NCBI GenBank assembly: GCA_034429745.1
Contig: DAOUFY010000108.1
Span: 4,136 to 68,135, forward strand
Reading direction: 5' to 3'
DNA: 64,000 nucleotides
DNA from: Anaerolineales bacterium
Lineage (GTDB): Bacteria; Chloroflexota; Anaerolineae; Anaerolineales; DRKV01
The notes below the pieces were generated by a model, which worked only from the letters and a program-made list of their open reading frames with translations, was not told the DNA's origin and did no database searches. This document shows positions 12,050 through 17,315 of this stretch, in pieces; positions within the stretch are counted from its first letter, which is position 1, and the number at the start of each line of letters is the position of its first letter. The translations under genes and the position numbers were made by a program.

Positions 12050-12772
12050 ATGAGCAGTATTCCAAGTGAAAAGAAAGTCATTATTGTTGATCCTGACCCA
12101 AAATATGGGAATCTTATCAGTCAGATATTAAAAGGGGAAGGTTTTACACCTATCGTTGTACAGAAAGGTGAAAAAGCCCTCCGAATTGCTGCAGATGAGG
12201 GCCTATATTTAACCATCACCGAAATAAATCTTTTAGGTGAGATTGATGGTTACGAGCTGGCGCGCCGAATTCGTACATTTTCTGAAATGCCAATACTCTT
12301 TGTTTCCGCTCAGGATGAAACGCAAGCTGTCTTATGGGCTTTTGAGTCTGGGGCAGATGATTTTATTACAAAACCATTTGATGCCAGAGTGCTGATAGCG
12401 CGTATAAAAGCGCATTTGAAGAGGAGCAGCGGAACGAGTGTTCAGGCAACTGAATTGACTTTTCAGCATATTACTATTCATTTAGCAACTCGGCAGGTAA
12501 CTGCTGATGATCAGCTGGTCTATCTCACTGAGACGGAATACAATCTTTTGTTGGAGTTAGCAAAGAATCACGATCGAGTTTTGACACATGAATATTTATT
12601 GAATGCTGTATGGGGTAATGCTTATAAAGACGAAGTAAATTATTTGCGCTCATACGTACACAATCTAAGACGCAAGCTGGAACGAGACCCAGCAAACCCG
12701 CAGCTGATACTCAGCCGCATGGGAGTGGGTTATATGCTTGTTTCTACTGCGCCAGCCGATGGAGGAGGTTGA
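12050..12772 (+). CDS. OmpR/KdpE-like response regulator with an atypical receiver (Glu at the phospho-acceptor position)
   Basis: Receiver plus winged-helix domain (C-terminus LRSYVHNLRRKLERDPANPQLILSRMGVGYML). The end of beta-3 reads YLTITEINLLGEIDG, so Glu replaces the conserved Asp. The N-terminal acidic pair reads VDPDP. The conserved S (FVSA) and K (TKPF) are retained. Confidence 0.85.
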   Translation: MSSIPSEKKVIIVDPDPKYGNLISQILKGEGFTPIVVQKGEKALRIAADEGLYLTITEINLLGEIDGYELARRIRTFSEMPILFVSAQDETQAVLWAFESGADDFITKPFDARVLIARIKAHLKRSSGTSVQATELTFQHITIHLATRQVTADDQLVYLTETEYNLLLELAKNHDRVLTHEYLLNAVWGNAYKDEVNYLRSYVHNLRRKLERDPANPQLILSRMGVGYMLVSTAPADGGG

Positions 12773-12776
12773 TTTT

Positions 12777-14066
12777 ATGCTACCTGGAACTACAGTAAAC
12801 CTGTTTGAAATGGCACAAAAGCAATTTGATCGGATAGCAGATATGCTTGGGCTGGATCAACCCACACGTGATTTTTTGCGTCAGCCAATGCGCGAGACTC
12901 AATTTAGTTTACCAGTGTTTCTTGATAATGGAGATACAGTGGTTTTGCGCGGGCATCATATTCAGCACAATGACAGCCGCGGTCCAACCAAGGGCGGAAT
13001 ACGTTTTCATCCACAAGAAACAGTGGATACAATTCGCGCCTTGGCGATGTGGATGACGTGGAAATGTGCAATTGCCAATTTGCCATTAGGAGGCAGCAGC
13101 AGTGGGGTAGCCTGCGATCCGCATAGCTTAAGCCCGATGGAAATGGAAAGAGTATGTCGCGGTTTTATGCGTAAGTTAGCTCATTTTGTCAATCCACAAG
13201 GGGATATCTTAGGACCTGATATTATGGTGGGCCCTCAGCAACTTTTGTGGATGCTGGATGAATATGAGGTTATTCACGGCAGGAAACAGCCAGGTGTGAT
13301 TACAGGCAAGCCAATCCACCATGCCGGCTCTAAAGGTAGCAAGGAAGCCCCAGGCTTTGGGGTTATGATCACAGTGCGCGAAGCTTTGAAGGATATGGGC
13401 ATTCCTATCGAGCAGACCAAAGCGAGTATCCAAGGCTTTGGCATGGTTGGCAGACATGCTGCTCAACTTTACAGCCAAATGGGCGGCAAAGTTGTCTGTG
13501 TAGCTTGCTGGAATCATGATGATCATACAGCGTATGCTTTTTATCATAAAGAAGGGTTGGATATTGGACGATTGATTGCTATAACAGACGCGTATGGCGA
13601 AATAGATAAAAGAAAAGCAATTGAAATGGGATATGAATGTCTGCCGGGTGAATCTTGGATTGAGCAAGATGTAGATATTTTGGTTCCAGCTGCCCTTGAG
13701 AACCAGATTCGGCACGATAATATCGAGCGCATCAGCATGCGCGTGAAAATTATAGCCGAAGCAGCTAGCGGACCAACAGATCCGGATGTTGATCCTCTAC
13801 TGCAGGAGAGAGGTATTGTAATTATCCCCGACATATTAGCCAATTGCGGCGGAGAGGTATGCAGTTATTTTGAGCAAGTGCAGAGCAATATGAATTATTA
13901 TTGGAGCCAAGATGAGATTCTTAGCAGGCTGGATTCAATTATGACTTCAGCTTACATAGATGTGAGCAAATTTGCTCATGAAAATCAATTGCAGCTGCGC
14001 GAGGCTGCTTATTTATTGGCAGTTGAGCGGGTGGCGCGGGCTTGCCATGAACGCGGCTGGATATAG
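12777..14066 (+). CDS. Glu/Leu/Phe/Val-dehydrogenase family paralogue with a substituted catalytic motif (GDH-like, probably non-canonical)
   Basis: GDH motifs GPTKGGIRFH, MTWKCA and GFGMVG (Rossmann) are present, but the Gly-rich catalytic turn reads LPLGGSSSGVACDP instead of GG[GA]KGG. I prefer the ATG at 12777, 8 nt after GGAGGAGG, over the tracked 12738 start, which overlaps the upstream gene. Confidence 0.85.
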   Translation: MLPGTTVNLFEMAQKQFDRIADMLGLDQPTRDFLRQPMRETQFSLPVFLDNGDTVVLRGHHIQHNDSRGPTKGGIRFHPQETVDTIRALAMWMTWKCAIANLPLGGSSSGVACDPHSLSPMEMERVCRGFMRKLAHFVNPQGDILGPDIMVGPQQLLWMLDEYEVIHGRKQPGVITGKPIHHAGSKGSKEAPGFGVMITVREALKDMGIPIEQTKASIQGFGMVGRHAAQLYSQMGGKVVCVACWNHDDHTAYAFYHKEGLDIGRLIAITDAYGEIDKRKAIEMGYECLPGESWIEQDVDILVPAALENQIRHDNIERISMRVKIIAEAASGPTDPDVDPLLQERGIVIIPDILANCGGEVCSYFEQVQSNMNYYWSQDEILSRLDSIMTSAYIDVSKFAHENQLQLREAAYLLAVERVARACHERGWI

Positions 14067-14078
14067 CCATCTTGTTAA

Positions 14079-15812: not shown

Positions 15813-15857
15813 GGTAAAAATTTCATTTACCTTATTTCCCTTATTATTGTTTTTTTG
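15811..15857 (+). terminator. Putative terminator ending the RR/GDH-like/PPDK_N operon
   Basis: AAGGTAAA (15811-15818) / TTTACCTT (15826-15833) form a perfect 8-bp stem, followed by a T-rich tail ending in T7. Confidence 0.5.
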
Positions 15858-15902
15858 ATGAAATCTTGATACTATTGGCGCAATTTTGATGATATCTTAA
15901 TA
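15853..15902 (+). promoter_or_regulatory. Direct repeat pair upstream of gdhA (candidate operator)
   Basis: TTTTGATGAAATCTTGATA (15853-15871) and TTTTGATGATATCTTAATA (15884-15902) match at 17 of 19 positions. They are 31 bp apart start to start and lie about 60-110 nt upstream of the gdhA ATG. Confidence 0.35.
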
Positions 15903-15959
15903 GTTCTTGTGTTATAAAGAACCTATCTAAACTATATTGACTTAAGGAGGTTTTAGGTT

Positions 15960-17315
15960 ATGTCACTGATTCAGGAAGTAATTGCTCGAGTGGAAGAAAA
16001 AGACAGTGGACAGCCTGAATTTTTGCAGGCGGTGCGTGAAGTGTTAACTTCACTTGAGCCGACGGTGAAAAAACACCCGGAATTTGTTAAGGCAAAAATA
16101 TATGATCGCATTGTAGTACCTGACCGAGTGATTATGTTTCGCGTGCCATGGGTAGATGATCATGGAGAAGTGCAGATCAATCGTGGTTTTCGGGTACAGT
16201 TCAATAATGCGATAGGACCCTATAAAGGGGGATTGCGCTTTCATCCTTCAGTATATTTAGGAATTATCAAATTTTTAGGATTTGAGCAAATTTTTAAAAA
16301 TTCTCTTACTACACTGCCGATGGGAGGAGCAAAGGGCGGCTCTGATTTTGACCCTAAAGGAAAATCAGATAACGAGGTGATGCGTTTCTGCCAGGCTTTT
16401 ATGCGAGAGCTGTATCGCCATATCGGACCTGACACGGATGTGCCGGCAGGTGATATTGGGGTAGGAGCGCGTGAAATCGGCTACCTTTACGGATATTATT
16501 TAAGAATTGTCAATGCCAATACTAGTGTGCTCACCGGTAAAGGGTTGGAATATGGCGGCAGCCTTATTCGACCGGAAGCAACCGGATATGGAGCTGTATA
16601 TTTCGCAGCAGAAATGCTAGCGACGCGCGCTAAGGAAATGAAAGGGATGGTTGCTGCCGTAAGCGGCTCGGGGAATGTAGCCCAATATACCATTGAGAAA
16701 CTGAACCAAATGGGTGCCAAGGCAATCACTATCTCTGATTCTAACGGCACTGTGGTGGATGAAGCAGGCATTGACCAGAAGAAGCTTGATTTTATTATGG
16801 AATTAAAAAATTACCGCCGCGGGCGAATTGTTGAATTTGCTGAACAGTATAATTTGCCTTATTATGCTGATAAAAGTGTGTGGGATGTGATCCGCGAGCA
16901 AAACTTGAAAGTAAACTTGGCTTTCCCCTCAGCTCATGAGAATGAAATCAACAAAACCAATGCTGAAGCCTTAGTGAAGAACGGTTGTATCTTGGTATGT
17001 GAAGGGGCGAATATGCCTTCGGATTTAGAGGCAATTGAAGTATTTTTGGATAAAGGCGTTCTGTTTGGACCGGCAAAGGCGGCAAATGCCGGCGGAGTGG
17101 CTGTTTCGGGGCTGGAAATGTCTCAAAACAGCATACGCATGACATGGTCGCGCGAGGAAGTTGATCAAAAGCTGCAGGTGATTATGAAAAATATCCATAA
17201 GGCTGCACTTGAAGCTTCTGAGATATATGGGCAAAAGGGCAATTATGTTTTAGGTGCAAATATTGCCGGCTTCCTTAAAGTGGCAAAAGCCATGCTGGCA
17301 TATGGCATTGTGTAA
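15960..17315 (+). CDS. gdhA: NADP-type glutamate dehydrogenase (hexameric, E. coli GdhA-like)
   Basis: 451 aa with canonical GPYKGGLRFH, LPMGGAKGGSDFDP, DVPAGDIGVG and SGSGNVA. AAGGAGG SD upstream. Confidence 0.92.
   Translation: MSLIQEVIARVEEKDSGQPEFLQAVREVLTSLEPTVKKHPEFVKAKIYDRIVVPDRVIMFRVPWVDDHGEVQINRGFRVQFNNAIGPYKGGLRFHPSVYLGIIKFLGFEQIFKNSLTTLPMGGAKGGSDFDPKGKSDNEVMRFCQAFMRELYRHIGPDTDVPAGDIGVGAREIGYLYGYYLRIVNANTSVLTGKGLEYGGSLIRPEATGYGAVYFAAEMLATRAKEMKGMVAAVSGSGNVAQYTIEKLNQMGAKAITISDSNGTVVDEAGIDQKKLDFIMELKNYRRGRIVEFAEQYNLPYYADKSVWDVIREQNLKVNLAFPSAHENEINKTNAEALVKNGCILVCEGANMPSDLEAIEVFLDKGVLFGPAKAANAGGVAVSGLEMSQNSIRMTWSREEVDQKLQVIMKNIHKAALEASEIYGQKGNYVLGANIAGFLKVAKAMLAYGIV

Follow-up and report, generated by a model that had tools for sequence, protein, structure and literature searches.

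The DNA analyzed here is a stretch of 64,000 nt from contig DAOUFY010000108.1 of an Anaerolineales bacterium (hereafter the window), in which four genes on the same strand at 12050–17315 encode an OmpR-type response regulator, a protein similar to glutamate dehydrogenase (GDH), a PPDK_N ATP-grasp protein, and a canonical GDH, that is, the product of gdhA. This locus represents a widespread and uncharacterized module in a reduced version specific to its lineage, and the conserved unit of this module is the pair of GDH and PPDK_N genes, not the trio of regulator, GDH-like, and PPDK_N genes. Judging from its residues, the GDH-like protein of the window is a pseudoenzyme, with the catalytic lysine lost and the residues that bind glutamate or 2-oxoglutarate kept. 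Tentatively, we regard it as the partner of an active ATP-grasp phosphotransfer enzyme, in a ligand-sensing or docking role, and the two may jointly control GDH-centered glutamate metabolism post-translationally.

A Probable GDH Pseudoenzyme beside a Canonical GDH

The intergenic gaps of the four genes are 4, 12, and 147 nt in gene order. The coordinates of the open reading frames thereby confirm the tightly packed trio, with gdhA at a greater distance, that had been described in a previous reading of the sequence alone (the sequence-only reading).

Both GDHs of the window contain the Pfam domains ELFV_dehydrog_N and ELFV_dehydrog, with E-values of 5e-45 and 3e-59 in the GDH-like protein. The gene of the latter (12777–14066, plus strand; 429 amino acids, aa) starts from the ATG at 12777, with GGAGGAGG as a ribosome-binding site just 5′ of it. 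The same start is called in public assemblies, in which the 429-aa product (P0001) is 100% identical. Its nearest solved sequences are the GDHs of Thermotoga, Pyrococcus, and Thermococcus, that is, the class of approximately 420 aa. In NCBIfam it stays below every GDH equivalog cut-off, the best score being 403.7 bits, for NF040817, which requires 750.

The lysine of the GG(G/A/S)KGG loop, which is the catalytic residue of GDHs (K125 in the numbering of Clostridium symbiosum), is missing from the GDH-like protein, since GGSSSG (residues 105–110) replaces GGxKGG, whereas the gdhA product of the same window has GGAKGG. The conservation of this loss was examined in the best 120 homologs, all from Anaerolineae and with 62–77% identity, and the lysine is absent in 119 of them. 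The catalytic alteration of this GDH, as claimed by the sequence-only reading, is thus not only real but also conserved.

The residues for substrate binding show the opposite pattern. In the same 120 homologs, K72 and D148 are present without exception, S363 in 118, and K96 in 115 sequences; the tested substrate-binding Lys (K89 and K113), Asp (D165), and Ser (S380) are all retained in the GDH-like protein. The dinucleotide motif G220xG222xxG225 is also retained. Drift is seen in PAPD (to LGPD), EATG (to EAPG), and GFGNV (to GFGMV, in which the Asn is lost), and EGANGPT drifts as well. The retention of the glutamate-binding residues means that the dead GDH fits a ligand sensor. Together with the identity of the homologs, the 172 out of 429 positions which are conserved at ≥95% indicate that the protein is under constraint.

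The gdhA gene (15960–17315, plus strand; 451 aa) encodes a canonical NADP-specific GDH of the Escherichia coli type, in agreement with its earlier description as fully canonical. Its product scores 729.5 bits against the cut-off of 536 of the NADP-GDH equivalog NF006929 and has an intact GGAKGG motif. Syntenic orthologs with 80–83% identity were found in three relatives (L004, L006, and L007). By these features, GdhA is the predicted catalytic GDH of the locus. The identity between the GDH-like protein and GdhA is 28% over approximately 370 aa, and their sizes (429 and 451 aa) place them in different classes.

Gene Order in the Clade of the Window

The clade which shares GGSSSG was examined in eight distinct loci, namely the window (L001), L004, L006, L007, L095, L096, L097, and L098. 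L007 belongs to a cultured strain, Leptolinea tardivitalis YMTK-2, and L095 to a metagenome-assembled genome (MAG) of Anaerolinea thermolimosa. The order GDH-like, PPDK_N, and 451-aa gdhA is found in all eight loci, and L. tardivitalis YMTK-2 has all four genes, including the regulator.

The regulator is present in five of the eight loci and absent from L004, L095, and L097. As a result, the synteny of the trio with gdhA, which the sequence-only reading had proposed to look for in related genomes, holds for the GDH-like, PPDK_N, and gdhA genes and breaks down for the regulator. The latter was also rejected as a core member of the module in the wider family, being absent from almost all of the loci described below. 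Based on this distribution, the regulator is best described as a lineage-specific add-on.

In two sister loci, the module lies beside the gene for the glutamate synthase large subunit (GltB) or an operon for a 2-oxoacid:ferredoxin oxidoreductase (L098:9929-11290 and L095:1528-4257). These neighbors fit a role at the 2-oxoglutarate/glutamate node.

The GDH/PPDK_N Module in Other Lineages

A metagenome scan with a profile of the PPDK_N protein resulted in 80 loci with 41–57% identity. In its short form (approximately 580 aa), the PPDK_N gene is preceded directly, and on the same strand, by a GDH of the 428-aa type in 40 out of 40 loci, as counted among the short-form loci whose contigs extend ≥1.4 kb upstream. 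The gaps between the two genes are mostly <100 nt (median approximately 50 nt), and in one of these loci (L056) the GDH gene overlaps the PPDK_N start by approximately 15 nt. This linkage is far beyond chance.

The possibility that the adjacency has no functional meaning, and that a decaying GDH duplicate is located beside unrelated genes, is therefore extremely improbable. The degenerate motifs, taken alone, would agree with it. On the contrary, the 40 cases of adjacency extend across diverged lineages, the paralog is strongly conserved, and no locus shows a disrupted reading frame, so that the comparative data already contradict it.

The short form is usually followed by a gene for a protein of approximately 1000 aa with PPDK_N and nucleotidyltransferase domains and then by a metallophosphoesterase gene. 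In detail, the approximately 1000-aa protein consists of an unknown N-terminal domain, PPDK_N, another copy of the domain that forms the C-terminus of the PPDK_N protein, and NTP_transf_2. The two genes accompany the pair in most loci outside Anaerolineae (L013:10248-14168, L014:5463-9526, and many of L016–L069), and both are absent from the 64-kb window. Fusions of the short PPDK_N protein with the approximately 1000-aa protein exist as single chains of approximately 1600 aa, for instance, P0241 with 1639 aa. A Rosetta-stone fusion of GDH with PPDK_N was also considered and rejected; the long representatives carry a receiver, DUF5752, or a second PPDK_N domain, and no GDH.

The long form (approximately 990 aa) has a weak receiver-like N-terminus and a region similar to DUF5752. 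It is found in Ignavibacteriota, Acidobacteriota, Neomarinimicrobiota, and one archaeon, with an Ignavibacteriota MAG and an archaeal MAG among the genome examples. A GDH gene is present in 17 of the 24 long-form loci, often as an E. coli-type gdhA directly upstream together with a 428-type GDH directly downstream. In L010, L012, L070, L073, L080, L086, and L089, the approximately 990-aa homolog is often located between two intact GDHs of different classes. Flanking by an E. coli-type and a 428-aa GDH would suit a reciprocal control of anabolic and catabolic GDH.

The signature C-terminal domain of the PPDK_N protein, which is treated below, is found in approximately 1,700 representative clusters. 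The pair itself is widely found with a catalytically intact GDH and without an adjacent gdhA. For this reason, a transcriptional circuit based on the regulator would be at best a lineage-specific layer, added to a module that acts at the protein level.

Recurrent Loss of the Catalytic Lysine

Most GDHs of the module keep the catalytic lysine. In the remaining ones, it is replaced by Ser (clade of the window), Met (L013, L049, and L060), Tyr (L026 and L027), Asn (L018, L029, and L036), or Phe (L048). Additional erosion depends on the lineage and includes K89 to W or M, K113 to E, D165 to E, and EATG to EAAG, EAVG, or EAPG.

A second GDH with the lysine is present in the locus of six out of eight Lys-less copies, in contrast to three out of 31 Lys-bearing copies (Fisher p = 6e-4, in a test which ignores phylogeny and on contigs with short flanks). 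The two Lys-less exceptions without a second GDH come from short contigs. Such a pattern would be expected if the GDH body is needed and its chemistry becomes dispensable once another GDH is at hand. Since the conversion to a pseudoenzyme seems to have occurred repeatedly and independently beside another GDH, the GDH body probably has a second, non-catalytic job.

The same substitutions bear on the possibility that the GDH-like protein is still active, as a neofunctionalized dehydrogenase with a different catalytic residue (such as Lys186 or Lys189 of AGSKGxKEAPG, both specific to the clade) or a different substrate. Such an enzyme would agree with the retention of the GxGxxG motif and of Lys and Asp for substrate binding, and with the new lysines that the clade has in the GGSLGRxEATG loop (K186 in 88 and K189 in 100 of the 120 homologs). 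Migration of catalytic residues in apparent pseudoenzymes is also on record (PMC10211241). On the other hand, the residues which replaced the lysine in independent lineages (S, M, Y, N, and F) are chemically unrelated, and Lys-less lineages show further losses at K89, K113, or D165 with no gain of lysines of the K186/K189 type. The drift in the GFGNV cofactor motif, EATG, and EGANGPT points in the same direction, and the window copy has the further private changes R188S, V360E, and N331S. We consider a neofunctionalized dehydrogenase improbable.

The PPDK_N ATP-Grasp Protein

The only Pfam match of the 577-aa protein (14079–15812, plus strand) is PPDK_N, at residues 28–392 (E-value 5.7e-34). 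The AlphaFold2 (AF2) model has a predicted local distance difference test score (pLDDT) of 83 and a predicted template modeling score (pTM) of 0.85. Its Foldseek matches are the nucleotide-binding domains of rifampin phosphotransferase (RPH), phosphoenolpyruvate (PEP) synthase (PEPS), and pyruvate phosphate dikinase (PPDK), with E-values from 3e-14 to 1e-6, and HpeI is among them. The AVRSS...ED...FAG core aligns with RPH, and GGK33, R123-S-S, E129-D130, E370/E372, and Q386/R388 are invariant in homologs down to 36–41% identity. With all family-invariant residues in place, the protein looks catalytically competent.

The C-terminal domain (approximately residues 395–577, about 180 aa) carries the invariant motifs GRxG(S/T)xDxWLGIP and PSxGSH(F/Y)F and is predicted confidently on its own (pLDDT 85.7 in AF2). 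A Pfam search with this domain was empty even at E ≤ 10, its model gave no Foldseek match in the PDB at E ≤ 0.001, and a comparison with a genuine PEP-utilizers domain by hhalign was negative. The invariant His509 is the sole candidate phospho-acceptor and is located in a low-confidence loop of the model. By eye, GSHYFHNIINLG resembles the TSHAAIVAREL of a phospho-His swivel domain; a divergent swivel is unsupported, given the negative results of Pfam, Foldseek, and hhalign, and the alignment of the C-terminal domain with RPH residues 779–806 is insignificant (−0.5 bit).

The Pfam search also detected no third, substrate-binding domain, either a PEP/pyruvate TIM barrel or a rifampin-binding domain, in the 577 aa, and all NCBIfam dikinase models score far under their cut-offs. 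The ATP-grasp domain (PF01326) and its core are thus common to this protein and the dikinases of the PPDK, PEPS, RPH, and phenylphosphate-synthase types, and the lack of a detectable swivel His domain, of a third domain, and of a PDB fold match for the C-terminal 180 aa is what sets it apart from them. It resembles the nucleotide-binding part of a dikinase and falls outside the definition of a PPDK, PEPS, or RPH enzyme. As regards anti-phage defense, PADLOC gave no match for the three window proteins, and a defense system was rejected.

Small oxo or hydroxy compounds are the phosphorylation substrates of enzymes of the PPDK, PEPS, and phenylphosphate-synthase types, which also exist as split, multi-subunit versions. 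This background speaks for a metabolic pathway or composite enzyme, in which the ATP-grasp protein (elsewhere together with the approximately 1000-aa protein and the metallophosphoesterase) would act on a small molecule that GDH produces or binds, with the GDH scaffold as the substrate-binding subunit. The retention of all catalytic residues in most module GDHs, the lack of a substrate-binding domain in the PPDK_N protein itself, and the fusions such as P0241, which suggest a multi-enzyme complex, are in line with it. Against it stand the repeated losses of the GDH catalytic residues, each time in a different way, from which the GDH chemistry appears dispensable; moreover, the window contains neither the approximately 1000-aa protein nor the phosphoesterase, biosynthetic neighbors are not conserved, and we know of no pathway with this composition. 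Such a pathway, of which an ATP-dependent activation of 2-oxoglutarate, 2-iminoglutarate, or glutamate would be an example, seems unlikely to us.

A more extreme reading assumes an ATP-driven enzyme split over the two proteins. The scaffold of GDH, also in the absence of its lysine, would provide the site for 2-oxoglutarate or glutamate which the PPDK_N protein lacks, and PPDK_N would phosphorylate the bound 2-oxo or imino acid, as PEP synthase does with pyruvate. The probability of this reading is low. If true, it would represent, at the glutamate node, a route coupled to ATP, for instance, for high-affinity ammonium capture, and the phosphate leaving group could make the Lys-catalyzed step unnecessary. 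In a less extreme version, the PPDK_N family could be a new class of GDH-directed protein phosphotransferases.

The Response Regulator and the Boxes Upstream of gdhA

The first gene of the locus (12050–12772, plus strand) encodes an OmpR/PhoB-type response regulator with Response_reg and Trans_reg_C domains (Pfam E-values 6e-20 and 2e-20). It was aligned with five orthologs and with PhoB (Asp53) as the reference. The column of Asp53 contains Glu and the E/D-D acidic pair is replaced by VDPDP, in accordance with the earlier description of the regulator as atypical; the conserved Ser/Thr and Lys (TKPF) are retained. Therefore, both members of the operon that had been called degenerate are so, the GDH-like protein by the loss of Lys and the regulator by Glu in the place of Asp.

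The phospho-acceptor position contains Glu in the window, L007, L096, and L098 and Asp in L006 and L013, and the acidic pair is broken in all five orthologs of the clade. In the outgroup L013, the receiver is canonical throughout, with Asp, and a GAF histidine kinase adjoins it. Since the outgroup is canonical and L006 still has Asp, the receiver degenerated within the lineage of the window.

The operon contains no histidine kinase. A 1112-aa membrane histidine kinase with at least four PAS domains is encoded at 17346–20684 on the minus strand, convergent with gdhA. It is not conserved beside the module in relatives and the regulator is without the phospho-acceptor Asp, so the two are probably unrelated. 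Without the Asp and a kinase, the regulator may be constitutive or controlled by protein contact.

Upstream of gdhA, a repeat search located TTTTKATRAWATYTT at 15853 and 15884, as two direct 15-nt boxes which are 31 nt apart, namely box 1 (TTTTGATGAAATCTT, 15853–15867, plus strand) and box 2 (TTTTGATGATATCTT, 15884–15898, plus strand). The window has three matches against 0.36 expected, and the repeats that the sequence-only reading had placed there are real. Similar paired boxes are located 5′ of gdhA in L004, L007, L096, L097, and L098. Of these, L004 and L097 are without the regulator, and for this reason the boxes are not assignable to it; their role as its operator was not upheld.

A third copy of the box (TTTTTATGAAATTGT, 10637–10651, one mismatch) lies between the divergent genes of a glycosyltransferase (9899–10621, minus strand) and a GNAT acetyltransferase (10826–11812). 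An acetyltransferase-like gene is also found upstream of the module in L004 and L097.

These features concern the circuit on gdhA proposed by the sequence-only reading, in a form in which the dead GDH and the ATP-grasp protein would sense glutamate or 2-oxoglutarate and control the OmpR-type regulator by contact, and the regulator would bind the gdhA repeats. Several observations favor it: Glu at the phospho-acceptor in four of the five clade orthologs and a broken acidic pair in all, compared with a canonical outgroup; a regulator stop codon only 1–4 nt from the GDH-like start; the conservation of the paired boxes in relatives; and the control of a transcription factor by a GDH in the RocG–GltC system. 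However, three of the eight clade loci, and nearly all wider loci, do without the regulator (in the three, GDH-like, PPDK_N, and gdhA remain), boxes are kept in two of its absences, and an intact ATP-grasp enzyme would be left without a role. The linkage to gdhA and the two degenerate members thus survive from this proposal, while the regulator is not core and the boxes are not its own. As a whole, the circuit is unlikely.

Transcription Signals and Flanking Regions

A weak A/U-rich hairpin overlaps the PPDK_N stop codon (15810–15834, plus strand; −8.5 kcal/mol, z = −1.67). It has a 9-bp A/U-rich stem and a U-rich tract which extends to approximately 15856, and a terminator scan gave no call for it. 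The hairpin claimed at the end of the trio therefore exists and is weak; it may be a leaky terminator. Upstream of gdhA, the promoter scan found only a 9/12 sigma-70-like match (15866–15893), and the separate promoter attributed to this gene is putative.

A perfect sigma-70 consensus promoter, TTGACA-17-TATAAT, is located at 11854–11882 and drives tRNA-Asn(GTT) (11896–11969). This tRNA gene is followed by a strong hairpin and U-tract, AUGCCCUC...GAGGGCAU (approximately 11978–12027; −21 kcal/mol, z = −2.7), which stops approximately 20 nt 5′ of the regulator start codon. No separate operon promoter is evident at 11854–12049, and the transcription of the operon may depend on read-through from the tRNA-Asn promoter. 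A riboswitch or leader RNA at the locus was rejected, as the Rfam matches are limited to tRNA-Asn.

Further downstream, the G+C content is approximately 0.50 at 22000–30000 of the window, compared with approximately 0.43–0.44 in the flanks. Rfam detected neither rRNA nor any other family in this region.

Comparison with Known Regulatory Systems

The literature search returned no publication on the GDH/PPDK_N module. It agrees with the earlier statement that no system of this composition has been described, with the addition that regulators derived from dehydrogenases as pseudoenzymes do have precedents.

The first precedent is the hetero-oligomeric GDH of Thermus thermophilus. There, an inactive GdhA is reported to regulate the catalytic GdhB, and an inactive APRT homolog to be an AMP sensor. 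Similarly to the window, an inactive GDH paralog is located beside an active GDH gene and a nucleotide-binding accessory protein is present, which in Thermus links GDH to the energy status. The Thermus GDHs are close paralogs in one hexamer, unlike the dead and live GDHs of the window with their low identity and different classes. The accessory protein also differs, being an APRT pseudoenzyme in Thermus and an intact-looking PPDK_N ATP-grasp protein in the window.

The second precedent is ADLP of Thermus, an AlaDH-like pseudoenzyme without the catalytic Lys, which senses NAD+ and regulates a CoA transferase (bioRxiv 10.1101/2025.10.31.685773). An amino-acid-dehydrogenase fold with the catalytic Lys replaced is common to ADLP and the GDH-like protein, together with the retention of ligand binding, which is predicted from residues in the latter. 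ADLP is the regulatory partner of a different enzyme encoded nearby; for the GDH-like protein, a comparable interaction is what we infer. The family (ELFV GDH in the window, AlaDH in Thermus) and the partner are different.

In Bacillus subtilis, RocG/GudB and GltC form a “trigger enzyme” system, in which a transcription factor is informed of the glutamate state through contact with a GDH of the approximately 420-aa class (PMC6794564). RocG, of the same class as the GDH-like protein, has catalytic activity. It is paired with a LysR-type regulator and no ATP-grasp protein takes part, in contrast to the window with its OmpR-type receiver protein, which is dispensable in sister lineages.

A more distant parallel is given by covalent-modification switches, such as GlnE, which acts on glutamine synthetase, and AceK, which acts on isocitrate dehydrogenase. 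The parallel is conceptual and lies in a dedicated ATP-using enzyme for a branch-point enzyme; the wider module also has a nucleotidyltransferase domain and a phosphoesterase. GlnE and AceK have no sequence relationship to the module proteins, and a modification of GDH by the module is hypothetical. Overall, the GDH/PPDK_N module differs from the known kinds in its PPDK_N partner with an unmatched C-terminal domain, its two GDH classes, and its wide distribution, and there is a real chance that its PPDK_N side is a new kind of system.

Proposed Mechanism and Implications

In the mechanism that we tentatively prefer, catalysis would be supplied by the adjacent canonical GdhA, with the module's own GDH acting in the Anaerolineae clade as a pseudoenzyme. 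The dead GDH would bind glutamate or 2-oxoglutarate, and perhaps a nucleotide cofactor, and would thereby be the ligand-sensing or docking partner of the ATP-grasp enzyme, which may still be active. With the use of ATP, the latter would tune GDH-centered metabolism of glutamate and nitrogen at the level of proteins, for instance, by phosphotransfer to a target such as GdhA or a related one, or by regulating this target in a nucleotide-dependent manner. In the lineage of the window, the OmpR-type regulator would add a transcriptional layer, which is perhaps controlled by protein contact.

Several points weigh against this mechanism. The interaction of the proteins, the binding of a ligand, and the modification of GDH are deductions rather than direct observations, as are the target and the chemistry of the ATP-grasp protein. 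PPDK-like phosphotransfer is unestablished, since no phospho-His swivel domain is recognizable. Most module GDHs elsewhere retain the lysine, so that the module may serve catalysis or a pathway instead of regulation, and the reduced module of the window, devoid of the approximately 1000-aa protein and the phosphoesterase, may work differently. A hetero-hexamer in the style of Thermus is unlikely for the GDH-like protein and GdhA, given their identity of only 28% and their different size classes. The limits of the Fisher test of the lysine loss, which ignores phylogeny and was made on contigs with short flanks, weigh here as well.

The module probably controls glutamate and nitrogen metabolism. 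It ties a PPDK_N-type ATP-grasp enzyme to GDH across several bacterial phyla and at least one archaeon, and the repeated conversion of its GDH to a pseudoenzyme beside another GDH is a natural experiment. The hypothesis is directly testable, because all four genes are present in this arrangement in the cultured L. tardivitalis YMTK-2. A modification or regulation of GDH by the ATP-grasp enzyme, if it occurs, would represent a new way of controlling nitrogen assimilation post-translationally; an action of this enzyme on a metabolite bound to GDH would represent new chemistry.

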